From: a bacterium
GTDB lineage: Bacteria > UBA8248
NCBI GenBank assembly: GCA_965261085.1
Contig: OZ253442.1
Coordinates: forward strand, 2,368,001 to 2,432,000
Length of the DNA: 64,000 bases
Direction of reading: 5' to 3'
Shown here: piece by piece, positions 26,199 through 44,699 of the stretch
Position numbering within the stretch: the first letter of the stretch is position 1
Layout: each line of letters begins with the position of its first letter
Notes under the pieces: generated by a model
Database searches by the model: none
What the model was told of the DNA's origin: nothing
What the model saw: the letters and a program-made list of their open reading frames with translations, nothing else
Program-made: the position numbers and the translations under genes

Positions 26199-27374
26199 AT
26201 GCCGAAAAGAAGCGAGTTCAAGCTCCTCAAGCGAGCCGTCGACGCGCTCGAAGTCGAAGGGAAGGATGCGGTCTTCTGGGACCGGGACTTGGCCGGCTTC
26301 GGGGTGCGGGTCCACCCCACGGGCAAGAAGGTCTACGTGGTGCAGTCCCGGGGGCCCGGAGGTCCCAAACGCGTGACGCTCGGCCGGCACGGGGATATCT
26401 CGACCGATGAGGCGAGGAAGCAGGCGGCCTCCGTCATCGACCGCATCAAGCGAGGCGAGGAGCCGAAGCCCGGACCGCCCGAGGCGGAACTCACCGTGGC
26501 CGGACTGGCCGAGCGCTTCATGCGCGTTTATGCCGGGGCGCACTGCAAGCCGGGCACAGTCGCGACGTATCGCTCCATACTGGAGAACCACGTCCTGCGG
26601 GCTCTGGGCTCGATGACGGTAGGCCAGGTCGGAGCAGCCGAGATATCGGCATTGCACCACCGGCTTCGCGAAACGCCGAGGATGGCGAACTCCGTGGTCG
26701 ACGTGCTCTCGCGGATGTTCACGCTGGCGGAAGCGTGGGAACTGACTCCGCCCGGGAGCAACCCGTGCCGGGGGTTGCGCCGCTACAGGATGCGCCCTTG
26801 TGAGCGGTTCCTCACGCCTGAGGAATACCGGCGCCTGGGCCGGGTCTTGGGGGAAACGGAGGGAACGACCTGGCCGCCTGCGGTCACGGCTATCCGGTTG
26901 TTGATGCTGACCGGATGCAGGAGTAGCGAGATACTGAACCTGCGCTGGGACGACGTGGACCGTACGGCGGGCGAGTTGAGGTTGAGGGACACCAAGACGG
27001 GCCCGCGCATGGTTCCCGTGACGGCGGCCGCCCTTGACGTGCTCGACGCGATCCCCCGTTCTCCGGGAATCCCCTGGGTGATCCCCGCACAGAAGGGAAG
27101 GGGCCGCCTCTCGGACCTCTATCACTACTGGCGGCCCATCCGGGCGCAGGCCGGTCTCCACGACGTACGCATCCACGATTTGCGGCATTCCTACGCCAGC
27201 AGGGCGCTGGCGCTGGGCGAGGGCTTACCCGTGATCGGGAGGTTGCTCGGACACAAGGAGGTCGCGACGACGGCGCGCTACGCGCACCTGATTCGCGACG
27301 CCGAGAAGGCCGCGGCGGTCCGGGTGGGCGAGAGCATCGGGGCCCACGTCGCGCGGAACGAAGATGAGGCATGA
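26199..27374 (+). CDS. Tyrosine recombinase/integrase 1 (N-terminal arm-binding domain)
   Basis: FWDRDLAGFGVRV, TGCRSSE, KTG, HDLRH, LGH, TARY; AGGAGG SD. Confidence 0.93.
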   Translation: MPKRSEFKLLKRAVDALEVEGKDAVFWDRDLAGFGVRVHPTGKKVYVVQSRGPGGPKRVTLGRHGDISTDEARKQAASVIDRIKRGEEPKPGPPEAELTVAGLAERFMRVYAGAHCKPGTVATYRSILENHVLRALGSMTVGQVGAAEISALHHRLRETPRMANSVVDVLSRMFTLAEAWELTPPGSNPCRGLRRYRMRPCERFLTPEEYRRLGRVLGETEGTTWPPAVTAIRLLMLTGCRSSEILNLRWDDVDRTAGELRLRDTKTGPRMVPVTAAALDVLDAIPRSPGIPWVIPAQKGRGRLSDLYHYWRPIRAQAGLHDVRIHDLRHSYASRALALGEGLPVIGRLLGHKEVATTARYAHLIRDAEKAAAVRVGESIGAHVARNEDEA

Positions 27375-27387
27375 GGGAGGAATGGAC

Positions 27388-28584
27388 ATGACGAAGCTCG
27401 CATACAGGACGCTCTCGAACCGGATGGTAGGGAAGCTTACGGTCGAAAAAGATACCGTATTCTGGGACAGGGAGCTCACCGGCTTCGGTGTGAGGGTCTA
27501 TCCCACGGGGAGTAAGGTGTACATCGCGCAGGCGCGGGGACCGGAGGGTCCCAAACGTGTGGCGGTTGGCCGCCAGGGGGTGATCCATGCGGAGGAGGCG
27601 CGCAAGCGGGCCGCCCTCATCATCTCCCGGATCAAGGCGGGTGAGGCGCCCGTGCCCGAACCATTGATACCCGCCGGCGGGCCGAGCGTGGCCGAATTCG
27701 CTGCGCGGTATCTCACGGAATACGTCTCGGTGCGGTGTAAACCGCGCACCGTAAAACTGGCCCGCTCCGTGGTCCACAGGCACATCGCGCCGGCCCTGGG
27801 CAGGATGCCTCTCGCGGCGGTCGAACGCGCGCAGGTGGCGGAGCTCCACCAGAAACTGTACGAGACGCCTGCGATTGCGAACGCCGTGGTCGGCGCTCTG
27901 TCTTCGATGTACAAACTGGCCGAGGGCTGGGGACTGGTCCCCGAGGGAGTGAACCCCTGCCGCTCCCTCGTCAAATACCCCGGACGCAGGCGGGAGCGGT
28001 TCCTGACGGAGGCGGAGTTTATGCGCTTAGGGAGCGTACTGGACAACGTCGAAGCGAAGGGCGTCGCGTCGGCGCCAGCAGTGGCGGCGATCAGGCTCTT
28101 GATACTGACCGGGTGCCGGAAGTCGGAGATCCTCACCCTTCGCTGGGAAGACGTGGCGCCGGATGAGAACGAACTGAGACTGCCCGACACGAAGACGGGC
28201 GCGCGGGCGGTCTCGCTCTCGCCCCCAGCGGTCAAGCTCCTCGCCGGTCTCCCGCGCTTCCCCGGAAACCCCTGGGTCATACCCGGCAGGAAGCCGGGCG
28301 GGCGCCTGAGCAGCCTCGATTACGTCTGGCGAATCATCCGCGAGCAAGCGGGCCTGGAAGACGTCCGGATCCACGATTTGAGACACTCCTACGCCAGCCG
28401 CGCCCTGGCTCTGGGCGAGTCCCTCCCGATGATCGGGAAGTTGTTGGGCCACAGCCAGATACAGACCACGGCGCGCTATGCGCATCTGGCGCGCGACTCG
28501 GTGAAAGAGGCCGCAGAGCGCATCGCCGCGAGCATCGCGATTGACATTCTGGGTGAAGACTGGAGGCATGCTTCCGTTTCATGA
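27388..28584 (+). CDS. Tyrosine recombinase/integrase 2, tandem paralog
   Basis: Same motif set (TGCRKSE, HDLRH, LGH, TARY); start 27382 or 27388. Confidence 0.93.
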   Translation: MTKLAYRTLSNRMVGKLTVEKDTVFWDRELTGFGVRVYPTGSKVYIAQARGPEGPKRVAVGRQGVIHAEEARKRAALIISRIKAGEAPVPEPLIPAGGPSVAEFAARYLTEYVSVRCKPRTVKLARSVVHRHIAPALGRMPLAAVERAQVAELHQKLYETPAIANAVVGALSSMYKLAEGWGLVPEGVNPCRSLVKYPGRRRERFLTEAEFMRLGSVLDNVEAKGVASAPAVAAIRLLILTGCRKSEILTLRWEDVAPDENELRLPDTKTGARAVSLSPPAVKLLAGLPRFPGNPWVIPGRKPGGRLSSLDYVWRIIREQAGLEDVRIHDLRHSYASRALALGESLPMIGKLLGHSQIQTTARYAHLARDSVKEAAERIAASIAIDILGEDWRHASVS

Positions 28585-28762
28585 TCTTCGCCATTCCTAC
28601 GCCAGCCGCGCCCTGGCCCTGGGCGAGTCCCTTCCCATGATCGGACGTTTGCTGGGCCACAGACAGATCGAGACCACGGCGCGATACGCGCACCTGGCGC
28701 GGGATTCGGCGCAGGAGGCCGCGGAACGGGTCGCCGCGAGCATCGCGGTGGACTTGCTGTAG
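28580..28762 (+). pseudogene. Integrase 3'-end fragment starting at HDLRH
   Basis: [43 protein letters not shown]...DLL*; overlaps the integrase 2 stop. Confidence 0.9.
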
Positions 28763-28813
28763 GGCGCCGGGCGTAACTCCCGAGAAACCCGGTCGATGAT
28801 GAATGCGATTTTC

Positions 28814-29125
28814 CTATATCTCCATCCCTCGGGCCGATCGGATCTTCTCCATCGCCGACCGCCACCCTTCACCCGAATGTAGCGTTTCGGTCGGCTTCTC
28901 CGCCCCGAAGCTCCCGGCCTTGCCCGCTCCGAACGCCTCCAGTGCCGCTATACACTCCCCCGTCGCGGCTTCCAACCGCTCGCACAGGGTCTTCGCGTCG
29001 TCCGTCAAGAGTTCCGCCCGGTCCCGGGCGCGGCTGATCTCGACGTAGAGCGTCTTCTGGTTGGTGAGGTCGGGGTGGTTCGCCTCCATCGCTGCGATGA
29101 CGGTGTCGACCGTGCGGCCCATCAT
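28814..29125 (-). pseudogene. C-terminal remnant of a TrwC/TraI-type conjugative relaxase-helicase
   Basis: GRTVDTVIAAMEANHPDLTNQKTLYVEISRARDRAELLTDD (helicase motif V/VI region). Confidence 0.75.
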
Positions 29126-29236
29126 CTTCCACAAGCTCAATCGCGACCCCGCCGTCGCCGCCGGCCACCACCCTGACCTGGGTGGTGGGGACGGCAATAC
29201 AGGCTAAGAAGGGGTCGGGGGAAGTCGCTCAAGCCG

Positions 29237-30406
29237 CTACTGTAACGCGCAGCCTTTGCGCTCCCGGCGCAGGCAGCCGAGGTTGCGATGGAACACTTCT
29301 GCCTGCGCTCGCGCGAAGCCGGCCGGGCCGGAGCCGTTCTCCCGGCTGTTCTGATACCGCGCCCAGTCGCCCTCGTTCCCCTCGCGCCAGTAACCGTCGA
29401 GGATCTGCGCGGGCAGGGGCTTGAGCTCGGGCAGGGTGTTGTAGCGGGCCCCGGGTGGGCCGTCGCGGCCGGGCAACCGGCGGCGCTCGCCGAGGAAGCC
29501 GTGGAACGAGTAGAAGGCGTCGGAGCCGGGGAGGAAGGCGAGCTCGTAGTCGACGGTTCGGTCCGGGTCGGTGATGTCGTCCGCCGACATCATCGGGCGC
29601 TTGCCGAAACCCATCATGAAGGCCCTGGCGTCATGGTCCAGAAACCGCACCGCCCGGCGCACCGTCCGTCCCGGAACGTGGGGGTAAAGCTCGTTCGAGC
29701 GGATGGCCACGTCGATGTCGAAGCGTCCGTCGGGCCCGAGCTCCACCGACTCGCCGACCAGGTAGGTGCGCAGGTAGTTGTGCTGCTGCAGGGTCAAGGC
29801 GACGGGACGCCCATCCGCGGCCAGGACCACGAACGCGGCGGTGTAGTGGTCGAGCTGGTGCCAGTCGTCGAGGTCCGCCACCAGCCGAAGCGGGATGGCC
29901 GCGGCCAGGGACAACCCCGCCGGCAGGCCGCTCACCCGGAACGCCAGGTGGTAGGTGAGGACGGTGAATTCCTCGGCCGGCCGGTCCGGTTCCTCCGTCG
30001 CCCACAGGCCTGTGCGCTCCACCGTGCCGTAGACGACGGGCCGGGGCTCGACCCCGCCCGGCGCGTGCGTGAACTCGGCGCGGACGTCGTCGCGGTAGCG
30101 GTTCAGGTCACTGGCGGTGGGGCCGTCGATGCGAACGCCGTCGCCCGTTATCAGGTAACCGTGGGCGATGTAGTCGCGGTAGAAGTCGATGGGACCTTCG
30201 TGGCCGGCGGGCAGGTGGAAGCGCGGCGCGTGGCGGCGGGCCAGGGCCTGATCGGCCGGATCGGCGGCGTCGGCCGGAGGGTTGGCCGCGAAATACTCGG
30301 CGAACCCGGGGTGCTGCGAGAAGTTGCGGTCGGCGGCGGCAGAGCCGGCCCTCACGCAGATCAGCAGAAGCCCCGCGAGACAGCCGATCATGTACACGTA
30401 ACGCAT
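29237..30406 (-). CDS. Hypothetical exported protein
   Basis: Signal peptide MRYVYMIGCLAGLLLICVRAGSAAA; long open frame with GC-rich codon bias; no recognised family. Confidence 0.65.
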   Translation of the reverse strand: MRYVYMIGCLAGLLLICVRAGSAAADRNFSQHPGFAEYFAANPPADAADPADQALARRHAPRFHLPAGHEGPIDFYRDYIAHGYLITGDGVRIDGPTASDLNRYRDDVRAEFTHAPGGVEPRPVVYGTVERTGLWATEEPDRPAEEFTVLTYHLAFRVSGLPAGLSLAAAIPLRLVADLDDWHQLDHYTAAFVVLAADGRPVALTLQQHNYLRTYLVGESVELGPDGRFDIDVAIRSNELYPHVPGRTVRRAVRFLDHDARAFMMGFGKRPMMSADDITDPDRTVDYELAFLPGSDAFYSFHGFLGERRRLPGRDGPPGARYNTLPELKPLPAQILDGYWREGNEGDWARYQNSRENGSGPAGFARAQAEVFHRNLGCLRRERKGCALQ

Positions 30407-30599
30407 CACATCACCGCGGAATGCGTGTGAACCCTGGTTTTCGGCCTTCCTGTGCGCGTTTCCCAACTGGTCACTGCGGAATCTGGTGAAGGTCCGAGCC
30501 CAGGTACCGACGCTACAGGCCGCCGCTAAGGTTAACATGTAACGAACAAGCTCGCGTGTGTTTGACGAGCGACGTAAAGGACCGTCGTGATACGCCAAA

Positions 30600-30972
30600 C
30601 ACACGCGACCGTGTTCGGACGGCAGTTCACCCGGACGCGGGACTCCATGTAGTGCTTGGCCAAAGCAGCCACGGTGGGCTCGGGCTCAGGCGGCCACGGG
30701 AAGGGTTCCTCGCCCCGCTTGATGCGGTCGATGACCCCGGCCGCCGTTTTGCGCGACTGCTCGGCAGACGTCTCGCCGTGACGGCCGATGGAGATGCGCC
30801 TCGGCGCGCCGTCCGGCCCCCTCGTCTGGACGACGTATTCCTAGCGACCCGAGGCGTGGACCCTGACCCCGAATCCGGGCAGGTCGCGGTCCCAGAAGAC
30901 GGCGTCGCCTGAGGGGACCGACAGCGCGTAGACGGTCCCCTTGGTGAGTCTGTGTTTGTTCTCCCGGTTCAT
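30600..30972 (-). pseudogene. Integrase 5'-end (arm-binding domain) fragment with internal TAG
   Basis: MNRENKHRLTKGTV...AVFWDRDLPGFGVRVHASGR*EYVVQTRG...IDRIKRGEEP. Confidence 0.85.
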
Positions 30973-31087
30973 GGAGCCCACTTCGCATGTTCCGTAACCG
31001 CATCGCAACCGATCAGTATCGAATCAGGGGCCATTCTATGGTGTTTCTGTCGGGGTTGCAAGTGGAGGATATTTCCGAATTATCTTG

Positions 31088-31112
31088 TAACTATATGAAT
31101 AACATATGGTTA
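31088..31112. other. Candidate recombinase core site (10-bp inverted arms, 5-bp spacer)
   Basis: TAACTATATG-AATAA-CATATGGTTA; left arm identical to 26063-26072 upstream of integrase 1. Confidence 0.4.
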
Positions 31113-31129
31113 TCAATAATACGTCATGG

Positions 31130-31309
31130 CATTCCTACGCCAGCCGGGTGCTGGCTCTGGGCGAGGGACTGCCCATGATTGGGCGCCTGCTGGGCCACAG
31201 ACAGATCGAAACGACGGCGCGCTACGCGCATCTGGCGCGGGGTTCGGCGCAGGAGGCCGCGGAGAGGGTCGCCGCGAGCATCGCGGAGGACATCTTGGAC
31301 AAGGGCTGA
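31130..31309 (+). pseudogene. Integrase 3'-end fragment
   Basis: [39 protein letters not shown]...EDILDKG*. Confidence 0.9.
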
Positions 31310-31789
31310 AGGTTGGCTTGTTAAGGACGGTCATGAGAACCGCCTCCGCTTCCGATACGTTGCGAAATGCACGGATCACGCCGTCCGGCACGACCATCCC
31401 GTCGAAGGTCTCGAGAATTACCGAGTAAACACCGTCATCTCCCCAGTAGATTTTCCACCGTCCCGTGAGGGTTACGAATGTCTCCTCCGATCCGTGGCTG
31501 TGCAGGGCAGCACCGATCCCGGGTAGGCCTTCACGAAGTCGATGTGGTAATTCACCGCTTGTTCGACGGCAGTGCCTGCAAGCTGCTCTTCATCCGCCCT
31601 ACCTCCGAGCGCGCTATAGAGGGTTCTGACGCGCCCGGGCAGGGAGCAATCGAGGAAAGCGTGGCAAGAGGGAACCAGTTCGGCGAATCGCCAGACTCGG
31701 TTTTTCATCTCCGCCTGAGTAACCTGCTTCGACTTTCCGAACCAAGCTCCGATCTCCCTGTCGAATCTAGCATCACGTTCGTTTCTCAT
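31310..31789 (-). pseudogene. Cupin-domain protein, frameshifted near 31520 and 3'-truncated
   Basis: ...DFVKAYPG / IGAALHSHGSEETFVTLTGRW...VPDGVIRAFRN across a frame change. Confidence 0.65.
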
Positions 31790-31996
31790 CAGGTTGCTCC
31801 TTGCTCAATCGATTGCGAAATGGCAGGGTGCGAGGCGATATGGCCCCAAAGTTTAGTACAGGGCAAGATCAGTAAGGAATATCCGAACAACACCGGTTTC
31901 TGCGGATGCGTACATGGGCGCAAATCCCGCTATACCTGACCGCGCGGGTGAGCGGCGGGGGGATGTGCAACCGGACAGGTCTTCAGGGAGGCAGCC

Positions 31997-32791
31997 TTGG
32001 CGGGCTTCGATAAGGTTTCGATCGACACGCTGTTTCGCATCGACGGCGACAGCGCGCTGGTCACCGGGGCGGGCGGCGGGCTGGGACGAATCGCCGCGAT
32101 CGCGCTTGCCGGCGCGGGGGCGCATGTCGCGGTCACCGATATCGATGCGGAGGCGGCCGACCGGGTCACGGCGGAGATCCGGGAGGCCGGCGGGATCGCC
32201 GAGTCCTGGCGGCTCGACGTTGCCGACCGCAAGCGCATCGACACCGTGATCGACGAGGCGGCTGAGCAGTTCGGCGGACTTCACATCCTGATCAACAATG
32301 CCGGCATCGCGCGGCCCGGACCGGCCGAGTGGTTTCCCGACGAGGACTGGGACGAGGTGGTCGAGGTCAACATGACCGCCCCGTTCGTCTGCGCGCGCCG
32401 GGCGGCGAAGTACATGCTGGTCCAGGGGGAGGGGCGGATCGTCTCGATCGCCTCGATCATGGGGTTTAGGGCGAACGCGATGGTTCCCCACATCCCCTAT
32501 CAGGCGACCAAGGGGGCGATCGTCAACATGACCCGCTCGCTCGCCGTCGAATGGGCGGGCCGGGGCATCCGGGTGAACGCCATCGCGCCGACCTTCTTCT
32601 ACACCAATCTCGGCGCCGATCTGCGTCAGCGCCGGCCCGAGATCGTGCCCGAGATCAAGGCGCGCACGCCGCTCGGCCGGCTCGGCGAGCCCGAGGAAAT
32701 CGCCGGCGGCATCCTCTACCTCGCGAGCCCCGCCTCCTCGATGGTGACTGGCCACACGCTGGCGATCGACGGCGGCTGGCTCTCGATCTAG
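31997..32791 (+). CDS. Short-chain dehydrogenase/reductase
   Basis: TGAGGGLG, NNAG, YQATK, IDGG. Confidence 0.93.
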   Translation: MAGFDKVSIDTLFRIDGDSALVTGAGGGLGRIAAIALAGAGAHVAVTDIDAEAADRVTAEIREAGGIAESWRLDVADRKRIDTVIDEAAEQFGGLHILINNAGIARPGPAEWFPDEDWDEVVEVNMTAPFVCARRAAKYMLVQGEGRIVSIASIMGFRANAMVPHIPYQATKGAIVNMTRSLAVEWAGRGIRVNAIAPTFFYTNLGADLRQRRPEIVPEIKARTPLGRLGEPEEIAGGILYLASPASSMVTGHTLAIDGGWLSI

Positions 32792-33410
32792 TGTCCTGAT
32801 TCAGAAGATTTTATTCAACTTTCTCCTGGACGCTGAGCGTCCTTTGGCAGAAGCGTTCGATGGCGGCCACGAGGTCGGCGGTGGAGCGGTGTGCGCCACG
32901 CTTGATCTACCGCTCAGTGAGCAGCGCGAAGAAGCGCTCGACCTGGTTGAGCCATGAGGAGGATGTAGGCGTGAAGTGGCTGTGTCATCGCGGCCGCTTG
33001 GCGAACCAGTCATGGATCAGCCTGGTTTTGTGGCTGGATACGTTGTCCATGACGACATGGATGTCGAGGTCAGTCGGCACGTTGCGCTCCACCTCGTCGA
33101 GGAAGGCGCGGAACTCGTGCGCCCGATGCCGCCTCATGCAACTGCAGATGACCGCACCCGGCGCCACGTCGAGCGCGGCTAACAGCGTGGTCGTGCCGTG
33201 GCGCTTGTAGTCGTGGGTGCGCCGCTCCGCCTGTCCAGGCCACATGGGCAGCATCGGCTGGCTGCGGTCGAGCGCCTGGATCTGGCTCTTTTCGTCGACA
33301 CACAGCACCAGCGTGCGGTCCGGAGGGTCAGATAGAAGCCCATGATGTCGCTCACCTTGTCTATGAACAGCGGATCGCTCGACAGCTTGAAGGTCTCCGA
33401 GCGGTGCGGC
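32790..33410 (-). mobile_element. IS630-family transposase remnant (3' part, frameshifted)
   Basis: TFKLSSDP, CVDEKSQIQAL, THDYKRHGTT, VMDN, HFTPTSSSWLNQVE; ends GGACAC-TAG at the SDR stop codon. Confidence 0.85.
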
Positions 33411-33686
33411 CCTCGCCGCGCGCGAGGTGCGGCTCACCGATTCGTAGACCGGTGCGCGGAGCGTGTCGCTCTCGCCCGAGGCGGAGGAGGTGCCGGCGAA
33501 CGTCCCCTGGGTTGCGGGCAATCCATGGGTCATTTCGGGCAAGGTCGGGAGAGAGCATATGCGAAACCTGAACGACCCCTGGGGGATCGTCCGGGAGCGC
33601 GCGGGACTCGATGACGTGCGGCTCCACGATTTGCGTCATTCCTTCGCCTCTCGCGCCTTGGCGCTGGGAGAGAGTCTGCCCATGAT

Positions 33687-35346: not shown

Positions 35347-35463
35347 AGGAGCCGGCCGGCGCGGATGGGACGAAACCCCCGAACGGGGGAGAGCGTCACC
35401 ATCGCCGCCTCGAAGACGCCGTCCTTCAAGGCCGGCAAGGCCCTGCGGGACGCGGTGCGCTAG
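35347..35463 (+). pseudogene. C-terminal half of an HU-family gene
   Basis: Manual translation [38 protein letters not shown]. Confidence 0.8.
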
Positions 35464-35599
35464 CGTTCGGCCGGCCTCAGGCCTCGCCTGGGTCACGGCG
35501 CGGCCCGTCCGGCGATGTCGATGCGTTTGCCCCAGGGTTCGCGGTTCCAGTCCTCTGGCAACTTGCCGTAGTTACGCCAGCAAACCGGGTAACCTAGCT

Positions 35600-36544: not shown

Positions 36545-37468
36545 TCATTGGGCGCTAACGGGACCGATGACCAACGAGGCGTAGTCAGACTCATAGAGCT
36601 TCTGATGTTCGCTGACTGCCAGACGTTGGAGACAATGTATTCGCCAATAGTCCTGCCAGTCTTGGGAATGGTATTCGTGATATTCCACCACTAATCCGAT
36701 TTGAGGATCCCGAGCATCCTCCCATGAAATCATTTGGGCGTGTGACAACCACCGTTGCGTATCAAGCAGTTCGCTCACAGTCTTTGTCCAGTTTCCTCCA
36801 TTACGGAACATCCCATGTTTCAGTAATTTTTCGGCGGCTTGGCGGGCTCGCTTAATTGCCACTTCACACAATTTAAGGGTGGCGGGATCAAGTTTACCCA
36901 GCATGGTCTGAGCCGCAATATTATTGGGATCGGCCCTGAGCGTCTCGTCATGTTCTTTATACGCATCAAGGTAGTTCTGTACTGATTGCCATCTGCCAAA
37001 GAGAGGTATTTGCGGATCGATTGGTCCGAGTTCCGACATGTCGCTCATCACGACGCTGTCAGCTCCGAGGACCATGAGTGTCCCAGCACTCTTAGCGAAT
37101 TCCGGAACGACGATGCGGAGCTTGGCCGCACCGACAAGGCTCCTCAGCATTCCCATCAGCTTCTCAGCGGCATCGATGCTGCCCCCTTTGGTGTGAAGCA
37201 GCAAATCGACGTTATGGTTCGGTGGTACATTGTGAAGAAGATCGACGAATGGCATGATGTCGTCGTCATCAATGACACACTCGTTCCCGGATACGTAGCA
37301 GATTAATATATGCCCGGTGCGGTCTTGAATCTGTTTGATCACTGCCTGACGATGGTAGCGATCAGCGGTATTTGCTTGGTATAGTGGCGTCTTGGTGGGC
37401 GGTTTCGGACCATTTTTAGGGTCAGGTGGAAGATCAGCGCCGTTGTCTGATGAAGACTGTTCTGTCAT
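36545..37468 (-). CDS. SDH/S49 (ClpP/SppA-fold) serine protease
   Basis: LLLHTKGG, AKSAGT (Ser nucleophile), SELGPIDPQ, SHAQMI; AGGAG SD before ATG 37468. Confidence 0.85.
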   Translation of the reverse strand: MTEQSSSDNGADLPPDPKNGPKPPTKTPLYQANTADRYHRQAVIKQIQDRTGHILICYVSGNECVIDDDDIMPFVDLLHNVPPNHNVDLLLHTKGGSIDAAEKLMGMLRSLVGAAKLRIVVPEFAKSAGTLMVLGADSVVMSDMSELGPIDPQIPLFGRWQSVQNYLDAYKEHDETLRADPNNIAAQTMLGKLDPATLKLCEVAIKRARQAAEKLLKHGMFRNGGNWTKTVSELLDTQRWLSHAQMISWEDARDPQIGLVVEYHEYHSQDWQDYWRIHCLQRLAVSEHQKLYESDYASLVIGPVSAQ

Positions 37469-37472
37469 TTGG

Positions 37473-37823
37473 TCACTCCTTACTTGTATTGACCGCCCAG
37501 ATGGTCTTGCCCGCGCGTATAGTGAAGTGACAGCGCCGCTCCGGGGTGACGCTATCAATGCTGGGGCGGATCGACAGGGGAATTCTTGACTCGATCTTCC
37601 AGACTGGGCGTCGAGTTTTGTCCAGATTCACCATGAGTCGATGCCTCGTTCGGCATGGGCAATCCATCACGGCCCATGTCGCGTTCTTTGGCGGACCAAC
37701 GAGGACAATGCCGCGGTGGGGTAGCCGGTCAGACACCTCATCGCCGGCGAGGACTTGGCCGACAATCCGCCAATTGTGCCACGGCAGTGGCAGCGATTGC
37801 CACCAGGCAATCAGGCTCTTCAT
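37473..37823 (-). CDS. DUF6527 family protein
   Basis: WAVMDCPCRT, LMVNL, W...SIRPSI, CHFTIRAG..W; ATGA overlap with the E1 gene. Confidence 0.8.
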   Translation of the reverse strand: MKSLIAWWQSLPLPWHNWRIVGQVLAGDEVSDRLPHRGIVLVGPPKNATWAVMDCPCRTRHRLMVNLDKTRRPVWKIESRIPLSIRPSIDSVTPERRCHFTIRAGKTIWAVNTSKE

Positions 37824-39202
37824 CCCTGCCATGTCTGTTCGAGGTAAGGTTCGGTTACGCCAAGCCCAAGCTTGTGCGCCCCGGGATGGCAATAGTGACG
37901 CTCGCGAGGGTCTTGGTCGTTAGTGGACATCTCACGCTCATGGGATCTGAGCAGTATTTCTGTAGGCGCGGGCTCAGGGCCGTAGTGAATGAGTCGCTCG
38001 AGCAATTCGCTCACGGAAGTTGACGCGACCTGTGTCGTAAACGTTACGACTGCAGGTTGGGCGTCCAACAGCGCGGGTGCGTAGCCTTCTTGGACGAGCT
38101 GACTGTATTCACCCGACGCGAGCATTTCGGCGGCGGCTCGTTGTAGGTCAATGCGATCGCGGCAGACTAAACAGGCAGCACCAGGAGCGAGTACCGTCAC
38201 GCGACCGTCGATGCCAGTCAGTTGTCCGCTTGGGCCACTGCTCAGTAGCACACCACAGTCAATAACGGGCGTTAGCAGGTACGAAGCGACGCGGGACAAC
38301 ACGAGCCGGCCAGCGTTGTCATCTGTGCAGCCAAAGATGACATCAGCATCGAGCAGCTGCCTGGCCGCGGATTCCAGCGTTATTTTGGCTTGCGTGGTCA
38401 CAACTTCGGCATCGGGTGCAATCTGCAACACGTGAGCCGCAATCACATCCACTTTTGGTTTGCCAACCCGATTGAGGTAGGACCCGTATACGCGCGTGAC
38501 GTTGCCTGCTATCAACGTATCTGGATCAAAGAGGTGGAGATGACGTACGCCCAATCGCACGAGCTGCTCGATAACTGCCGACCCGGTACCACCGCAGCCG
38601 ACGACGGCGATGTTTAGGTTGCCGAGCACTTGTTGGATTTCGCCGCCAAATGCGCGAATGTTGCGATCAAATTGGTCGGAGGGTGGCACTATGTCGTGTA
38701 ACCAGTTCTGAATGAGCGTGAAACGCCGCCCGGTAACCCACAAGCGATCGATATCGGTTCGCTTATTGTCGGATTCGATGTGGCCGGTGAATTGGAGGCG
38801 ATGCCCCGTCGGAGCGAGGACAATTGCTCCATATAGGGGGCTTCCTGCACGAAGTCGGAAGAGGTCAGCAAGCTGTTCGTCGACGATCTCGTCATGCTTG
38901 CTTGGTCTGGGCGATGACTCCTTGCCAGGATGCGTGTGCAGCCAGATGGGAACAGACTGATCGGCCTCCGCCGCAGCGAGTGCGGGCACGTAACCGTGGG
39001 AAGCAATGCTGAGCCCCGTGGCATCGCGCCGAAGGTAGGCGTCATCCGGGACCCAATGCACCGCACGGGCGAGCAAGCGGACGTTTCCGCACGGCGTCTC
39101 TACTAGTCGTGCCAGCAGAACACAGGCTGTCTCGATGTCAATGGCGGTTGCCTCAAGGAGTTCATCTGCGATCTGAGTTGACAACACGAGGGTGACGGTC
39201 AT
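37820..39202 (-). CDS. JAB/MPN-like peptidase fused to a ThiF/E1 ubiquitin-activating domain
   Basis: N-terminal E...HTHP...PSKHD; C-terminal VGCGGTGS, DPD..NVTR, GCTD, ACLVC. Confidence 0.88.
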   Translation of the reverse strand: MTVTLVLSTQIADELLEATAIDIETACVLLARLVETPCGNVRLLARAVHWVPDDAYLRRDATGLSIASHGYVPALAAAEADQSVPIWLHTHPGKESSPRPSKHDEIVDEQLADLFRLRAGSPLYGAIVLAPTGHRLQFTGHIESDNKRTDIDRLWVTGRRFTLIQNWLHDIVPPSDQFDRNIRAFGGEIQQVLGNLNIAVVGCGGTGSAVIEQLVRLGVRHLHLFDPDTLIAGNVTRVYGSYLNRVGKPKVDVIAAHVLQIAPDAEVVTTQAKITLESAARQLLDADVIFGCTDDNAGRLVLSRVASYLLTPVIDCGVLLSSGPSGQLTGIDGRVTVLAPGAACLVCRDRIDLQRAAAEMLASGEYSQLVQEGYAPALLDAQPAVVTFTTQVASTSVSELLERLIHYGPEPAPTEILLRSHEREMSTNDQDPRERHYCHPGAHKLGLGVTEPYLEQTWQG

Positions 39203-39591
39203 CGGTGTATTTCCGGCACACTACGTACGAGGTCTTGCCGTATCAGGGCGAGAAAGCTCTCAAGACCATCGATTCCAGATTCCCATTGTCCGTTGTTGAA
39301 GTGTCTCGACCAGCGTTGCCAGCTGCGGCCGAGATACGATTCCACGACATTGGTGGCGGGCAACACTTGGCCATTCTTCAGGTTAACGTGGGGCGAGAAC
39401 CACCACATGTCGGGGGGAACATCTGGATAACCAGGACTGAGGCGTATCAGAAGATCTGATACATTTCGATCAAACCCTCTCGGGAGTGGCCACTGGAGCA
39501 TCACGACGCATGTCATGCCCGACTCAGAGGCGATCTGGTGGGCCAGACCCCGTTCGTTCAGGTAGTTCACGTCCGATTGTGGAAGAGCCAT
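39199..39591 (-). CDS. Prokaryotic E2/UBC-like protein (family E type)
   Basis: LPRGF, LLIRLSPGYPDVPPDMWW, WQRWSRH; ATGA overlap with JAB-E1. Confidence 0.85.
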   Translation of the reverse strand: MALPQSDVNYLNERGLAHQIASESGMTCVVMLQWPLPRGFDRNVSDLLIRLSPGYPDVPPDMWWFSPHVNLKNGQVLPATNVVESYLGRSWQRWSRHFNNGQWESGIDGLESFLALIRQDLVRSVPEIHR

Positions 39592-39896
39592 GGAAGATGT
39601 CCAGAAGTTCGGCGGCCAGGACGGTATGCGCCAGGATTGATGGTGTTGGGTGCGGTAAAAAAGCGCAAGCCGTCATGAACCTCGACCGTGTCGTCGTCCT
39701 TGATCTTGCGGTCAGGGTGGCCGGGAATGACTTGGAAGAGATCGCGCTCGGGCGGGATCGGATTCGGCGGGAGAAAACGAAGCTGAGCCCCGGTGATCTT
39801 CTCATCCGGCCAATCGTACTGGGTTCGATCAATCCGGATGGTAAATACCTTGTGCCCCGGTTTGTCCTTGTCGGGAATTGGATTCTCTGTGGCCAT
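39567..39896 (-). CDS. Ubiquitin-like (multiubiquitin-family) protein with C-terminal extension
   Basis: FTIRID...ITGAQL...DLF...D..I..DDTVEV.DG.RFFT..NTINPG plus 20 aa; AAGGAGG SD. Confidence 0.8.
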   Translation of the reverse strand: MATENPIPDKDKPGHKVFTIRIDRTQYDWPDEKITGAQLRFLPPNPIPPERDLFQVIPGHPDRKIKDDDTVEVHDGLRFFTAPNTINPGAYRPGRRTSGHLPWLFHNRT

Positions 39897-39917
39897 GGTG
39901 TTCCTCCTTAGTTTCTT

Positions 39918-39999
39918 GATACCATGATACCATAATGCTATGACGCCACGCAACCCCTATTGTATGCCAGTTGACAACCGCGCGCTCAAATTGGAGAAT
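39918..39999. promoter_or_regulatory. Divergent promoters with 8-bp tandem operator-like repeats
   Basis: Minus strand TTGCGT-18-TATCAT (TG-extended); plus strand TTGACA-17-GAGAAT; repeats GATACCAT GATACCAT AATGCTAT GACGCCAC. Confidence 0.55.
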
Positions 40000-40006
40000 C
40001 GAGAAC

Positions 40007-40219
40007 ATGAAACCTGTCAAAGCAATGACAATTCGCTTGTCTGCCGATCAGTCAGAGCAGTTGGGCACGATCGCGGCCGTCGTCGGTCAACCGGTTTCGC
40101 ATGTGATTCGTTCGGCGATCGCAGAGCATATCGAGGAACGCAAACGTGACACCGCGTTTCAGGACATGCTCCGCGAGCGCATTGAGCGGGCACGGTTGAT
40201 GCTGCCGAACGACAAGTAG
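40007..40219 (+). CDS. Ribbon-helix-helix (CopG-like) regulator
   Basis: KAMTIRLS...PVSHVIRSAIAEHI; 70 aa; divergent from the Ubl operon. Confidence 0.8.
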   Translation: MKPVKAMTIRLSADQSEQLGTIAAVVGQPVSHVIRSAIAEHIEERKRDTAFQDMLRERIERARLMLPNDK

Positions 40220-40712
40220 TAGGGCGGACAAGGTTCAGAACGGGTGCGGCCAGCAATCGCCAGTCTTCACCATGCCGCTGATTGTGTCGACAGGCGATCC
40301 CTTGAAAATGCGTGTCTTATCATCTGTAAATGTGTCTGTTGACCTCCGTAGTGGAGCGGTTGTGCGGGCGGATACGGATTTGATCGCTCCTCCCGGCCGC
40401 CTCCACGCGGTGGCGAGCGCGAGTGCTGCTGGCCTGTGGGTGTAGACTAAGAGACCTGATGACGGTTCCGCTCCAGCGAGGCGTCGCGCACGGCCTTTTC
40501 GAGTAACCGGAGCAGCGTCAGTACCTTCGCCGAGCGGTACACGATGAAGGCGGCCCGGTACCCGAACGGCCGAGACCGCTTGAGGGTTCGGTTCGCCGTG
40601 GGCGAATAGAGGAGAACTGAAGGGGCGCCCGCATCGGACGGAGGGAAGCGGACGGCCTGGCGACGTTCACGGGTAGGGGATCGGATGTGTGTAAGAAAGA
40701 AGGAGCACAACG

Positions 40713-41459
40713 GTGTGTGACAAAGGAACCGACGGCACCGTGAGCAGCGATCTATCGTGGTTCGAATCACTCCCAGACGACCGGTCTTGGGACTCATTGT
40801 GGAGTGGGTACATTCGTTGCGCTTGCGGCGGAATCCGCACTACAGAGGCGCATTGCCCCGTATGCGGCGAGGACCCAACAATTTCGGACTGGGTGATTGT
40901 GCACGATACTGACGGCAAGGAGTACCGTGTGCCGTCCGCCTTTATGGGCGCTGAGGGCAGGTATGAGGATTGGATCTACCTGCGAATGCTGGAACGGGAG
41001 TGGTCAAGGCCCGTCGAGGCGGACCTGTATGACTTGATCCCGGAGAACCATCGCCCTTCCGCGCGAGCGATAGTCGTGCTGGTGTTCTGGAGCTACTTCG
41101 AGACGCGAATCGAAAGGCTTTTTCGGGAAACGGGGAAGGGGGTGCCCGAGAAAGTGATGGACCACCTTCTGGATCGCCATTCCTTCGTCGGCACGCGGAT
41201 GGACAGGCTCTACAAGGTGGTTTTCTCAACGACGTACCGAGCCGATCTCAACGACCTCGGGTACAGCAAAGTGGCGGCGCTCCTAAAAAAGGTTGAAAAG
41301 TGTCGAAACAGGTTCACTCACGGCCAACCGGAAGCAATTGACGACGCACTGGTCGAAGAGCTTGTGGCGGGTCTGAAGGAAGAACATGAGGGTTGGATCG
41401 CCGTCTTCAACAGGCGGCTGAAGGAAGCGCTCAAGCGATCGGCAACACTGCAAGGCTGA
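40713..41459 (+). CDS. Zn-ribbon plus HEPN-like domain protein
   Basis: CACGG...CPVC; WSYFETRI; RNRFTH (RxxxxH). Confidence 0.65.
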   Translation: MCDKGTDGTVSSDLSWFESLPDDRSWDSLWSGYIRCACGGIRTTEAHCPVCGEDPTISDWVIVHDTDGKEYRVPSAFMGAEGRYEDWIYLRMLEREWSRPVEADLYDLIPENHRPSARAIVVLVFWSYFETRIERLFRETGKGVPEKVMDHLLDRHSFVGTRMDRLYKVVFSTTYRADLNDLGYSKVAALLKKVEKCRNRFTHGQPEAIDDALVEELVAGLKEEHEGWIAVFNRRLKEALKRSATLQG

Positions 41460-41464
41460 TTGTT

Positions 41465-41592
41465 ATTCGGCGCACCGATTCGAGCGCGAGATACGCATAG
41501 TGCGCCATGGTCTCGATTTGTCTGTGGCCCAGCAGACGCCCGATCATAGGCAGGCCCTCGTCCAGCGCCAGTGCGCGGCTGGCGTACGAATG
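41465..41592 (-). pseudogene. Integrase 3'-end fragment
   Basis: Manual translation HSYASRALALDEGLPMIGRLLGHRQIETMAHYAYLA. Confidence 0.85.
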
Positions 41593-42054
41593 GTACAAAT
41601 TCGCTTTTCAGGGCAGTATCATCCTGAATGGTACCGATAATATCAGAGTTCTGGGAAACTCTTCACTTGAATTTCCGGTGAAAGTAGTAACCAAGTGGGG
41701 AATTAGCCAGCGTTGGCCGATATTATCGGGGGTGCGATTGCCTTGTGTGGTTGCATCATTGCTCTCTTTTAAATTCGAATTATTGTTCGATGTCGCTGAA
41801 AGACGAAACAAACAGTTGAGAGGTTGGTAACTAGTGGCTTGTCAAAGTGAATTTGATGATTTGAAACGTTCTCATTTCAATGCGAAAAGGTTTTTTGGAT
41901 TGACGAGAACCCTGGTGTTTCGGGGGTTTCGGGGCAGGCGGTTGATGAGGAAGGAATATGCGAGGTCGAGGGCCATTTGGCGGACGGATGGCGCACAGTT
42001 GTCGAGGGCTGTATCTACACAAACTACGAACATCAATGTACGGAGCGTACCATA

Positions 42055-43155
42055 ATGGCATGCATTGATGATCATCTGCTCGCGCCGAATATCTCAATCG
42101 ATGAGTATGCGCGTCAGTCGCAGATTCAGCTTGGAAGGGATCTTTCAGAAAAACGCGCCGTATATTTGGATACCAAATATTGGATATTGCTCCGCGAAGC
42201 AAACCAGAAAGAGGAAATGGAAAAAGCCGCTATGTTGCTCAAATTACTTCGCGCTGGCGTTTCTAGGGATTTACTTTTCTGTCCGATCAGCGAAGCAGTA
42301 TTCATCGAATTGATGAAACAAAGCGATACGTCTTCGCGCCTTGCGACTGCGAAACTAATCGACGAACTCAGTTTGGGTGTCACCTTAATTAGAGAGGAAG
42401 AGAGAATTTTCACTGAGATAGAATATCTCATGCTTTCGTCACTGAAACGAAATAACCTCCAACCTTTGGATGACTTAATTTGGTGTAAGCTTAGCTATGT
42501 GCTCGGCTTTCAACACCCTACGAATCCCATGTTCGATGCTAGCACAGACTTGGCAATACAGAAGGCATTCTTCGACCACATGTGCACCATCCCGTTGCAC
42601 GAAATGGTCAGGCTAATCGGCGGTCACGAATTTCCGGGAACTAATCTTGGCAACATCGCTGCTGCCCTGAATAATGGCAATGACGCCCATTCCGATGAGT
42701 TGCGCAGTTTTAAGCAGGCTTATGATGCAGAAGCGAAAGGTCTAGTTGACCAGTTCGGATGCATGGCAGTCGACGTCATGATGTCGTTGGTCCGCGAACA
42801 AGACTCTGCCATCGCTCCATCTGCGATGGACGAACGGGGAGCATCCGAAAACTGGTGGAAGAACTTGCTATTTTTCGCCCTCGAAAGAAATAGGGCACGG
42901 GATGTGCTGCGGACGATAAATATCCTTGCGAGCCTCCATGCTTCGCTTCGCTGGAACAAGGGCCGGCGTTACCGTAACAACGACCTTTTAGATTTCCACC
43001 ATGCAGCCGCCGCGCTAGCTTATTGTGATGCTTTCTTAACTGAGCGTTCTTTATCTACAATGATAACGGAACGGGCCTTAGACAAAATTTACCAGTGCCA
43101 CGTGGCGTGGACAGAGGACGATGCAATAGCGTACTTATCACGCATCGTGCATTGA
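42055..43155 (+). CDS. Hypothetical protein with split PIN-like nuclease motifs
   Basis: VYLDTKYW, FIEL, NDLLDFHHAAAALAYCDAFLTER; visibly more AT-rich. Confidence 0.6.
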   Translation: MACIDDHLLAPNISIDEYARQSQIQLGRDLSEKRAVYLDTKYWILLREANQKEEMEKAAMLLKLLRAGVSRDLLFCPISEAVFIELMKQSDTSSRLATAKLIDELSLGVTLIREEERIFTEIEYLMLSSLKRNNLQPLDDLIWCKLSYVLGFQHPTNPMFDASTDLAIQKAFFDHMCTIPLHEMVRLIGGHEFPGTNLGNIAAALNNGNDAHSDELRSFKQAYDAEAKGLVDQFGCMAVDVMMSLVREQDSAIAPSAMDERGASENWWKNLLFFALERNRARDVLRTINILASLHASLRWNKGRRYRNNDLLDFHHAAAALAYCDAFLTERSLSTMITERALDKIYQCHVAWTEDDAIAYLSRIVH

Positions 43156-43231
43156 TCAACAGTAAGGGAACAGCAGGCCCCTATTAGGTTTGATTTGCCT
43201 GATCTTTTCCATGTAACCCATTCATGGAGAG

Positions 43232-43420
43232 ATGACGATAAAGAATTCCGTTTTGTCACTTCCGGGCGGTGATGTTCGCGGGGCCGGAGTTTCAGTCCGC
43301 CGCCTTTGGCCGGATGAAGTGAAGGCGCAGATTGTCTCGGAGAGTTATGCGCCCGGCGTGTTGGTACCAGAGGTTACGCGCCGCCAAGGACTTACGCCGT
43401 AGAACCTGTCAACGTGGCAC
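43232..43420 (+). pseudogene. IS66 TnpA-like HTH remnant
   Basis: RRLWPDEVKAQIVSESYAPG..V.EVTRRQGLTP*NLSTW. Confidence 0.6.
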
Positions 43421-43531
43421 TACCGGAATCGCTCGATTTCGGGAGGTAGTCGACAAGGGCGAAAGTGTCGCGCCAGAAGTTCGATTTATTCCGCCGGAAA
43501 ACCCAAGAACATTGTACAAGTGCAGTGAAGA

Positions 43532-44544
43532 TCATGAGCCGGAAGCATGCCTCCAGTCTTCGCCCAGAATGTGGGTTGCGATACTGTCCGAGATCCGCAC
43601 CGCCGCCTCGTGCACCGAATCCCGCGCGAGATGCGCATAGCGCGCCGTGGTCTCCACCTGGCTGTGGCCCAACAGTTTCCCTATCATGGGGAGAGACTCG
43701 CCGAGCGCCAGGGCCCACGACGCGTAGCTGTGCCTGCAGTCGTGGATTCGCATGTCCTTGATCCCCGCGCGCTCGCAGACGATCTCCCAGGGGTCGTTCA
43801 GGTTGCGCATGGGCCTGCCCTTGACCTTGCCCGGAATGAGGAAGGGATTCTCCGGAACGCGCGGGACGGCCGCCAGGACGCCGGCGGCTTCGGGCGAGAG
43901 CGATATCCTCCGCGGGCCGGTCTTGGTGTCAGGCAACCGGTGCTCTCCCGCCCCGAGGTCCACCTCGTCCCAGCGAAGGTTGAGTATCTCCCCCTTCCGG
44001 CATCCGGTCAGCAGGAGCAGGCGGATAGCCGCCACCGCGTGGACCGAAACCCCCTTGCGGGTCCCGGCCTCGTCGAGCACCCGGCCGAGGCGCCGGAACT
44101 CCTCCCCGGTCAGGAAGCGCTCGCGGGCGCGCTCACGGTACTTGACCACCAGCCGGCACGGGTTGACGGCCTCGGGGATCAGGCCCCGCTCCCCGGCGGC
44201 GTTGTATATCCGCGAGAGCGTGTCCACCACGCGGTTCGCCATGACCGGCGTAGCCCTGAGCTCGTGGTGCAACGCGCTCACATGGGCGTGTCCGACCGCG
44301 AGAGCGGACATTCTACCGAGCGCGGGCAGGATGTGTTTCCGGACGGCCTGTTCGTACATCTCAGCCGTTCTCGGCTTGCACCGCACCGCGACGTGTTCCT
44401 CGAGATACGCCCGGGCGAGTTCCGCCTCGCCCGGTCCCTCGACCGGCGGTTCGGGCACGGGCTCCTCGCCCGCCTTGATCCGCGCGATGAGGAGCGCCGC
44501 CCGCCTGCGCGCCTCGAGATCGTCTTCTTCTCAAACCTCGCCAT
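43532..44544 (-). pseudogene. Integrase 2-like paralog in inverted orientation with the arm domain deleted
   Basis: MARFEKKTISR jumps to ARRRAALLIARIKAG; TGCRKGE, HDCRH, TARY; C-terminus GEDWRHAS as in integrase 2. Confidence 0.85.
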
Positions 44545-44556
44545 ATCCCTTCTCCC

Positions 44557-44699
44557 TCACGCGGAGCCGTTCAGAACGTCCGCCCCGATGCTGCCGCCGA
44601 CCTTCTCGGCGGAGGCCTTCTCCGCATCTCGCGCGGGACTCGGTGCGCGAGACCACGGAGCGCATAGCCGTGAGCATCGCGGCCGACATTCTTGGCTAG
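44557..44699. pseudogene. Back-to-back integrase tails (minus ARDAEKASAEKVGGSIGADV; plus [24 protein letters not shown])
   Basis: The two readings overlap at GCATCTCGCGCG (44624-44635). Confidence 0.75.

Follow-up and report, generated by a model that had tools for sequence, protein, structure and literature searches.

Related mobile elements appear to insert at the catalytic-motif codons of each other's integrase genes: an array of integrase fragments in a UBA8248 bacterium

A 64,000-nucleotide stretch of the genome of a bacterium of the GTDB lineage UBA8248 (GenBank assembly GCA_965261085.1, contig OZ253442.1, positions 2,368,001 to 2,432,000 of the forward strand; here called the window, with positions counted from its first letter unless given as genome positions) contains the left part of a large mobile element, which we call W. 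Behind the two adjacent tyrosine integrase genes of W, int1 (26199..27374, +) and int2 (27385..28584, +), lies an array in which integrase fragments alternate with other DNA. We propose, with a probability of about 0.7, that related elements insert at the codons for the HDLRHS motif of resident integrase genes, and that this reaction explains the array. The target appears to be new, and the mechanics are those of known tyrosine-integrase islands; in the literature searched we found no description of bacterial elements that integrate into integrase genes.

According to the proposed mechanism, elements of the W family would always carry two adjacent P4-type tyrosine integrase genes, and one clade of them would target the HDLRHS-coding DNA in the integrases of resident relatives. 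Strand exchange would occur within the His-Ser codons (CAYTC) and split the resident gene, whose 5' part would become joined to one conserved end of the incoming element and whose 3' part, from HDLRHS to the stop codon, would become joined, in opposite orientation, to the AT-rich end upstream of the incoming int1, leaving the interrupted integrase unrepaired. The same reaction would also use a mimic of the HDLRHS-coding sequence that lies behind a conserved 10-residue tail of many int2 genes. The 16.2-kb stretch between int2 and the W backbone would then consist of leftovers of repeated events after deletions and recombination mediated by insertion sequences (IS), namely displaced 3' ends, each with the trailing DNA of its parent element, and remnants of inverted elements. 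The order of these events and the integrase that acts are what we infer.

An integrase gene as probable insertion target

Two integrase genes of this genome stop abruptly after HDLRHS, one of the int2 type at genome position 3811564 and one of the int1 type at 1423475-1424416, and both then run into the same sequence, TGTGCAACATACGGGGATTTCC..., which is 95% identical between them over 685 nucleotides (nt). An intact integrase pair at genome 217020-219711 represents the uninterrupted version of the first of these genes: it matches 3814094-3811564 (91.8%) up to position 219546 and 3742420-3742251 (92.4%) from position 219542, and these two matches lie on the same strand, about 69 kb apart, and overlap by 5 nt at CAYTC. 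The intact site reads ..CGT CAT TCG TTC.., the 5' part reads ..CGC CAC TCT/TGTGCAAC.. and the 3' part reads ..ACTGTGC/CAT TCG TTT.. (a slash marks the junction), so that only CAYTC(K) is common to all three. The short block of identity shared by both junctions and the uninterrupted site, by which a site-specific element is recognized, is thus present and measures 5 nt (CAYTC). The 3' part adjoins AT-rich DNA that leads into a further intact int1-int2 pair (3742652-3745024), and this pair points away from it. Judged from sequence, this arrangement bears the signature of a site-specific insertion of about 69 kb in the His-Ser codons of an int2 gene.

Past the junction the interrupted gene continues into the element end, where nothing resembles an integrase; the downstream His and the catalytic Tyr are thereby lost, and the insertion does not make good the damage. 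The earlier proposal, made from the sequence alone, that such islands integrate into an integrase gene is supported by the pair of empty and occupied sites, by the same end found in different integrase genes and by the recurrence of displaced 3' ends elsewhere; its corollary, that integrases swap their catalytic tails in the process, finds no support at the sole fully resolved insertion, where the interrupted integrase gains no new tail.

Recurrence in other genomes and loci

Eighty loci around relatives of int2 (designated here by L-numbers) were fetched, nearly all of which carry an adjacent integrase pair, and were considered together with the present genome. The breakpoints found in this set support the target rule: 13 of the 24 C-terminal fragment matches start at HDLRHS, one of them being the copy, in the sister genome G021, of fragment B of the window, and a further HDLRHS junction was seen, which gives 13 independent junctions, five in this genome and eight in five other assemblies. 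The DNA across each of these junctions is unrelated to integrase genes, so that homologous recombination does not explain them. The remaining 11 matches comprise one overlap artefact (L013), one ambiguous case (L023), five fragments whose first residue lies at 353-356 and four that begin elsewhere. The mapping of breakpoints that the sequence-only reading had called for thus returned a divided answer, with a shared point at the HDLRHS codon in 13 independent cases and many other break points besides.

A second line of evidence comes from a conserved element end, which can be aligned over at least 140 nt in seven places and in each of them directly follows an 18-nt HDLRHS or HDLRHS-like word. 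Three of these places are real integrase genes, two in this genome and one in G024, where the cut integrase reads ...VRLHDLRRS up to the junction, so that the real cut genes span two species; another three are tail-mimic sites, in L014, L017 and L070, and the last is a stub in G022. An additional match in G022, found outside the scripted alignment, coincides with an integrase 5' part that ends at residue 339 of 399 and would appear to be a fourth integrase gene cut by the conserved end. The integrase genes that carry the same non-integrase end at the same codon are only 56-75% identical to each other. A pattern search for the conserved end in 23 genomes of the genus returned only five places, in three genomes, which indicates that this type of end is rare.

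The bias was also apparent in a hand tally of HMMER matches in five further whole genomes, limited to family fragments of at least 45% identity and fewer than 300 residues (n = 51). Sixteen of the 41 5'-truncated fragments start at residues 315-347 of 399, where an even spread of starts would give about four (the 16 include the two sister copies of fragments A and B of the window), and five of the 26 3'-truncated fragments end at residues 335-345.

The elements concerned are related to one another. In a quick tree of int2 proteins with 77 rows (70 of the 80 loci and seven proteins of this genome, ten loci having been dropped as short or lacking a long frame), the pairs that adjoin displaced ends, namely the pair at genome 3742652, L068 and L070, together with L073, fall in one clade of eight rows with a support of 97 in the Shimodaira-Hasegawa-like approximate likelihood ratio test (SH-aLRT). 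The inverted integrase gene of the window, int3, was grouped with this clade by its 90.6% DNA identity, and the int2 of W belongs to another clade. Integrase genes are numerous throughout: this genome has at least five int1-int2 pairs and 36 integrase matches, and five genomes of the genus have 31-38 matches each. Related loci occur in records titled as sponge-associated metagenome-assembled genomes (MAGs) of Nitrospinota, and the adjacent pair recurs at 58-68% identity (L053-L092) in MAGs labelled Alphaproteobacteria, Gammaproteobacteria, Binatia, Gemmatimonadota and Poriferihabitaceae, many of which have names in the style of sponge metagenomes. This distribution suggests that the paired integrases have been exchanged across phyla.

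Two classes of junction and the tail of int2

Alignment of the junctions establishes their anatomy, which is of two kinds. In class I, an int1-upstream region stands in reverse complement ahead of the displaced end, as in fragments B and D of the window, at genome 3742435 and in L068, L070 and L073; this is the layout of the product of the resolved insertion. A search for the class I end in the 80 loci and this genome yielded three true copies. In class II, a full-length int2 with an extension of the form GE[DG]WR.AS.S and a stop codon is followed by an 18-nt word and then by a displaced end in the same orientation. This arrangement was seen at fragment A of the window, in L014, in L018 and in L015, the last with an insert of about 450 nt, and G022 and G005 qualify by position.

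In W, the tail of int2 (tail-O, 28555..28594, +) is the 10-residue extension GEDWRHASVS, which runs into the 18-nt HDLRHS word CATGATCTTCGCCATTCC. The same tail and word are found in L014, L015, L017, L018 and L070 and behind int3, each time with different DNA beyond, and the combination is kept in two int2 clades. What follows the word is, in the window, an int2-type end and DNA of the kind that trails int2; in L018, an int1-type end and then an intact int2; and in L014, a tailed end. In L015 the insert of about 450 nt lies at the tail point between two copies of GGCTTC..ATGAT. The variability of the DNA behind the word indicates that it is a recurrent recombination point, and the presence of the conserved element end directly behind tail and word in L014, L017 and L070 indicates that the word itself is used as a target.

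The origin of class II, and with it that of the succession of full int2, tail and fragment A in the window, may be sought in the integration of an element that has its attachment site behind int2 or, alternatively, in a site-specific deletion between two directly repeated words. A single event of the 69-kb type was also considered as the source of fragment A and is ruled out by orientation. The tail and mimic may themselves be an old duplicated piece of an integrase, as the tail, judged by eye only, resembles ...RAGL..VRIHDLRHS with small deletions.

Composition of the array

The extent of the array follows from a comparison with a twin of W in the same genome. The integrase pair at genome 1091723-1094333 is 97% identical to the window over 25979-28590, and a homologue of the W backbone from 44814 onward stands directly behind the int2 of the twin (genome 1094343; 85-88% identity), so that in W an insert of 16.2 kb (window 28591-44813) separates int2 from the backbone. 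Integrase copies in the window were located by tblastn with its three long integrase reading frames, and breakpoints were placed by nucleotide alignment; in these searches int1 extends over 26037/26199-27374 (+) and int2 over 27364/27385-28584 (+). All of the roughly nine copies listed in the sequence-only reading were recovered, and one additional piece was found.

Fragment A (28577..28762, +; tblastn 28577-28759, int2 amino acids (aa) 336-396, 85%, E 4e-28) is a displaced 3' end from HDLRHS to the stop codon. It keeps the full 18-nt word CATGATCTTCGCCATTCC, with the TGA stop codon of int2 lying within the first two codons of the word, and also retains, ahead of the His-Ser codons, CATGATCTTCGC, which overlaps that stop codon. 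Fragment A is collinear, together with block 1 behind it (28763..30603), with the DNA behind int2 in two other full elements: 28580-29120 is 81% identical to genome 219530-220061, and 29024-30415 is 95% identical to genome 3742246-3740825. Block 1 contains a 455-aa open reading frame (ORF) on the minus strand that belongs to no family, and it gave no Pfam, PADLOC or NCBIfam match.

The additional piece is an int1-like 5' fragment with its upstream end (30604..31129, -; tblastn 31107-30604, E 1e-34, equivalent to aa 7-176), whose upstream region can be aligned with that of int1 and which directly abuts fragment B (31130..31309, +; tblastn 31130-31297, aa 341-396, 82%, E 1e-22), a displaced 3' end that starts at CATTCC and is also present in G021. 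The int1-like piece is what is left of an element that had inserted the other way round, and it forms with B a class I junction from which the rest of that element has been deleted. The homology between A and B starts exactly at CATTCC, the His-Ser codons of HDLRHS, and amounts to 87.7% over 162 nt.

Block 2 (31310..33411) holds a 153-aa ORF, a short-chain dehydrogenase (SDR) gene (31997-32791) and, according to Pfam, a DDE_3 transposase fragment (32985-33542, -). It is followed by fragment C1 (33412..33696, +; aa 270-360), whose 5' break lies away from HDLRHS and which in G021 continues without interruption to aa 386, by an IS with a 487-aa DUF772/DDE_Tnp_1 transposase (33697..35216, +), which has about 25 related copies in the genome at 79% identity and is absent from G021, and by fragment C2 (35217..35372, +; aa 355-399). 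C2 is only 80% identical to the G021 continuation of C, where C1 and its flank reach 96-98%. C2 thus does not continue C1 orthologously, and the interpretation of C1 and C2 as a single gene split by the IS was rejected on this ground; at the IS, two different integrase fragments have been joined.

Beyond it, block 3 (35373..41445, -) carries a DUF2201 fragment, genes for an SDH-type ClpP-like protease, a ThiF-type E1, a Prok-E2_E protein and multiubiquitin, and a 248-aa ORF (identified with Pfam, PADLOC, which reports E1-E2, and NCBIfam). Adjoining it is fragment D (41601..41446, -; aa 338-393, E 2e-14), a displaced 3' end that starts at CATTCG. Between D and the word behind int3 lies a low-GC insert of 1.9 kb (41602..43518, +) with one 392-aa ORF of no known family and without an integrase, whose ends are not clearly homologous to the conserved element ends; it is possibly an integrase-less insertion into the tail-mimic.

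The inverted integrase gene int3 (43532..44515, -; tblastn 44515-43535, E 5e-114, confirmed by Pfam) is of the int2 type with the conserved tail. Its DNA is 90.6% identical to genome 3744053-3744990, relative to which about 175 nt are missing near the 5' end. The HDLRHS-like 18-nt word CATGATCTTCACTGCACT (43519..43536, -) overlaps its stop codon, and the stub CATGATCTTC that had been noticed behind this gene is indeed present at 43536-43527 on the minus strand. Fragment E (44575..44635, -; int1 aa 420-438), the last 60 or so nt of an int1-type gene that precedes int3, is weak as a protein match (44631-44575, E 0.03), and the DNA of 44509-44635 shares 93.7% identity with genome 3743878-3743752, where the int1 of another pair ends. 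On the minus strand, E, int3 with its tail and word, the 1.9-kb insert, D and the operon of block 3 thus follow one another as a unit, the operon being on the same strand. The array ends with fragment F (44625..44699, +; tblastn 44625-44696, aa 374-397, E 3e-6), a 3' end remnant; the interval 44620-44792, which includes F and extends toward the W backbone, matches genome 3745236-3745410 at 78.5%.

Nucleotide alignment agrees with the observation, made from the sequence alone, that three fragments begin at the catalytic HDLRH codons, these being A (28577/28592), B (31130) and D (41601), and A, B, D and the int3 stub are true homologues, not chance matches. Fragments C and F begin at residues 270 and 374, respectively, so that the breaks are not all at the motif. 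The array is demonstrably a mosaic: it contains pieces of at least five elements in both orientations, integrase remnants and one joint marked by an IS. Such a composition agrees with a history in which elements inserted repeatedly into integrase genes or their mimics and the products were then reshaped by deletions and IS-mediated recombination; it agrees less well with a cassette array.

The sister genome G021 shares window 25983-33690 at 97.6-98.1% identity, and 4.7 kb of other DNA replaces 33691-45067, which indicates that the left part of the array is independently assembled and old and that the right part is variable. Related genomes, which the sequence-only reading had proposed to compare for variable cargo between conserved breakpoints, show a different right half in G021, a left half of the same order there, and conserved breakpoints in other assemblies.

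Points against the proposal and alternative explanations

Several observations weigh against the proposed targeting of integrase genes, or limit its reach. A single insertion could be resolved at both of its junctions with an uninterrupted homologue for comparison, and no excised circle or junction read was seen among Logan contigs from four runs; these contigs, which represent mixed populations and measure a few hundred bases, have no bearing either way on excision or mis-assembly. This genome has fewer 5' parts cut at HDLRHS (two) than displaced 3' ends (five), so that simple insertion alone does not suffice to produce the array, and additional deletions or another reaction must be assumed. 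Other break points are common, accounting for 25 of 41 fragments in the whole-genome tally and 11 of 24 in the locus survey. The fragment in the int2-tail-fragment A succession has the orientation of int2, an arrangement that the resolved type of insertion does not yield, and the tail is perhaps degenerate integrase sequence from upstream of HDLRHS, given that HMMER alignments of such fragments start at about residue 317. Finally, W and its 97% twin adjoin a palindrome of the REP (repetitive extragenic palindromic) type, not an integrase gene, and two other members of the family have different left ends; integrase targeting therefore holds for only part of the family.

The alternative that survives best is a platform resembling an integron, in which tail and mimic serve as a dedicated landing pad, Int1 and Int2 capture DNA there without harm to their own genes, and the array is a row of captured units, some of them lacking an integrase. 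We regard this as unlikely, even though tail and mimic are conserved in two int2 clades with different DNA beyond (in the window and in L018, L014, L017 and L070), the L015 insert of some 450 nt lies between copies of GGCTTC..ATGAT, and the 1.9-kb insert without an integrase sits between the int3 word and fragment D. That insert, however, has ends that differ from the conserved ends. The distance between int2 and the ParB-like gene varies (0, 16.2 and 23 kb in three copies), as might be expected of a platform, but the 23 kb of the third copy include a coupling-protein gene and hence backbone rather than cargo; and the right half of the array differs between this genome and G021, as captured cargo might. 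On the other side, block 1 is collinear with the DNA that trails int2 in full elements. The blocks point both ways, two of them carry integrase remnants, and a comparison of the window with itself revealed no cassette-type site recurring at the far ends of blocks. The integrases score 46.6 and 40.7 bits against the integron-integrase model TIGR02249, far from its cut-off of 265. As to cargo, blocks 1 and 2 and the 1.9-kb insert gave no defence-type matches with PADLOC, NCBIfam or Pfam, and a single block, that with the ubiquitin-like operon, is defence-like. A row of integron-like cassettes with defence cargo, as pictured in the sequence-only reading, is therefore difficult to reconcile with blocks that point both ways, with integrase remnants in two of them, with the IS joint and with the collinearity of block 1; the defence component contracts to the ubiquitin-like operon, and the labels "relaxase remnant", "cupin", "HEPN" and "PIN" given to other ORFs of the array went unconfirmed in a low-stringency Pfam search of its unassigned ORFs, which returned nothing usable.

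A variant that combines both ideas deserves mention as a tentative suggestion, with odds well short of even: the int2 tail and its mimic may be a purpose-built decoy or landing pad that diverts integrase-hunting relatives from the element's own catalytic codons and stacks them behind integrase genes, together with units without an integrase such as 41602-43518. If so, the region would be an accretion platform run by a P4-type integrase pair and built on conflict between related elements.

Far less credible than either is ordinary decay, that is, random deletions and RecA-dependent recombination among paralogous integrase genes. Such processes find some room in the abundance of substrates (36 integrase matches in the genome), in the frequency of other break points (C1, C2, F and E in the window, and 25 of 41 in the whole-genome tally) and in the one joint marked by an IS. 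They are contradicted for the HDLRHS junctions by the 13 independent cases at one codon with unrelated DNA across, by the same non-integrase end at the same codon of integrases that are 56-75% identical, and by the intact paralogue, which reveals the 5-nt overlap at both junctions.

Equally improbable is that mis-assembly of a repeat-rich, metagenome-derived genome created the array. Paralogous repeats abound in the region, the right half (33691-44813) was not found in G021, and short public contigs (the same four Logan runs, examined over 25500-45400) leave that half unbridged: 41436-43427 is almost uncovered in all four, no contig joins across it, and the joints link paralogous fragments with short sides. 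Against this, the independent assembly of G021 has int1, int2, A, block 1, the inverted int1 fragment, B, block 2 and C in this order at 97.6-98.1% identity, seven public runs contain about 60% of sampled words of 27800-33600, and junctions of the same kinds recur in other assemblies.

The least probable explanation, already contradicted, is "suicidal" integration of the archaeal style, with the attachment site inside the element's own integrase gene: the placement of the 5' and 3' integrase parts, one on either side of the inserted DNA, recalls the SSV-type layout outlined in PMC8371274, but the insert of about 69 kb retains its own intact integrase pair at one end, both parts of the split gene match the int2 of a different element, and the ends next to the junctions are non-coding.

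Relation to known systems

The proposed insertion into integrase genes has its closest mechanical parallel in islands within tRNA and tmRNA genes and in their tandem arrays, where a displaced 3' piece of the target lies at the far end of the element (the Islander-type signature; PMC4383910). The present case shares the tyrosine integrase, the site-specific crossover inside a gene and the displaced 3' fragment, as well as the accumulation of several fragments with the same start upon repeated use of a site; it differs in that the target is formed by the integrase catalytic-motif codons of another mobile element instead of a tRNA gene, in that the target is left unrestored at the resolved site and in that each element has two integrase genes. 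The SSV-type suicidal integrases of archaeal viruses and plasmids, which according to PMC8371274 split their own gene, have a chromosomal target and are said to occur only in archaea, resemble it in the split integrase gene with N and C parts at the ends of the insert; the bacterial element, in contrast, keeps its own pair and splits the gene of a resident element. Helper-embedded phage-inducible chromosomal islands (PICIs), as presented in PMC10111431, are satellites whose integrases target late genes of prophages and whose excision restores the gene within a regulatory relationship. With these the W family has in common that one mobile element integrates site-specifically into a gene of another to give nested islands, and it departs from them in that the gene is not a phage structural gene of a helper but encodes the recombinase catalytic motif of a related element.

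With integrons the region shares a recombination point beside an integrase gene and variable DNA behind it, and differs in having no IntI-type integrase, no attC-like sites and no uniform orientation, its units being pieces, in blocks of 1.8-6 kb, of large elements. Paired, paralogous tyrosine recombinases are otherwise known as XerC/XerD and as TnpA/TnpB of Tn554. The latter pairs and the one described here have in common that paralogous recombinase genes stand side by side and presumably act together; both proteins of the W pair, unlike them, have a P4-type arm-binding N-terminus, and their joint action is putative.

Implications

If elements of this family do target integrases, the catalytic codons of a rival integrase would offer a site that is present wherever relatives live, that is conserved by selection at the protein level and whose use is harmless to the host. 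Insertion would disarm the resident element through the loss of the catalytic tyrosine, and would thus amount to conflict between elements waged by site-specific recombination. Homing endonucleases and inteins sit in conserved catalytic motifs, by a similar logic. The reaction would also provide a mechanism for the formation of nested composite islands and for the high number of integrase genes in this lineage (31-38 matches per genome), and, should the tail-mimic prove to be a landing pad, there would be a second route, besides integrons, to gene accretion linked to an integrase. Since the presumed attB is short (CAYTC and flanks) and set by a protein motif, it is a candidate for the development of integrase tools.

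Element W and neighbouring features

The window up to about position 21000 is chromosome proper, with genes for an ABC transporter, HU, a MiaB-like enzyme, UvrD and others. A stretch of lower GC content (21409-24315) separates this chromosomal part from the left end of W and contains methylase and nuclease genes, comprising D12 class and N6_N4 DNA methylases and a BglII-type restriction endonuclease, and REP-type repeats follow at 25129-25364. The left end of W (25979..26198, +) is AT-rich, lies upstream of int1 and abuts a REP-type palindrome (CGT CATTCCGGCGCATGC, minus strand); the boundary was set where the 97% homology to the copy at genome 1091723 begins, at 25979, the flanks further left being different. 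The palindrome (window 25964-26016) reads CGT CATTCCGGCGCATGC CGGAATCC, with a second variant in addition, stands at the left ends of both W and the twin, and has 28 copies of its REP word in the genome. It contains CATTCC after CTTTG.., loosely like the HDLRHS-coding target, and may be a secondary attachment site. ARAGORN detected neither tRNA nor tmRNA genes in the 64-kb window.

Int1 and int2 are 56% identical, and int2 starts 11 nt past the end of int1. Both are P4-type integrases with Arm-DNA-bind_3, SAM-like and catalytic domains (PF13356, PF14659 and PF00589, all above cut-off in both), int2 being of full length, and the motifs for the catalytic residues R, K, HxxR, H/W and Y, namely TGCR, DTKTG, HDLRH, LGH and RYAH, can all be read in the translations of int1, int2 and int3.

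The backbone of W in the window (44814..64000, +) encodes, by Pfam, a ParB-like protein, a HATPase protein, a Strawberry-notch-type helicase, a DUF7146-Toprim protein, SSB and others. W reaches at least genome 2514993 and hence spans at least 121 kb, and homology with the twin continues beyond that point. The type IV coupling protein model PF02534 has four matches in the genome, one of them inside W (2494235), and the VirB4 model PF03135 has none, other VirB4/TraC models and relaxase models not having been searched. W is a large integrative element and is probably conjugative. The distance of 0, 16.2 or 23 kb between int2 and the ParB-like gene, mentioned above, refers to the twin, W and a third family member (genome 219712-242731), respectively. 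In the latter the coupling-protein module stands directly behind int2, and in W and the twin it lies about 100 kb away, at the far end, which indicates that the position of the integrase pair within a shared backbone differs between members. W and the twin are 97% identical in the int1-int2 module and only 85-88% in their backbones, which suggests recent exchange or independent movement of a 2.6-kb integrase module.

Two further observations concern the array. The operon of block 3 (36545-39953, -), which encodes multiubiquitin, Prok-E2_E, a ThiF-type E1 and an SDH-type ClpP-like serine protease, constitutes a bacterial ubiquitin-like conjugation set; in such sets a JAB peptidase is more usual than a serine protease. 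The five integrase fragments that start at residues 353-356, in the LPMIGKLLGH region, all do so beside ends resembling those of an IS or a miniature inverted-repeat transposable element (MITE): these are the case at window 33697-35216, where the junction reads CCCATGAT/../ATGAC, and those at about 13184 in L015, 12465 in L022, 14038 in L034 and 11280 in L068. These residues may represent a second hot spot, used by an insertion sequence with a preference for a conserved integrase motif.

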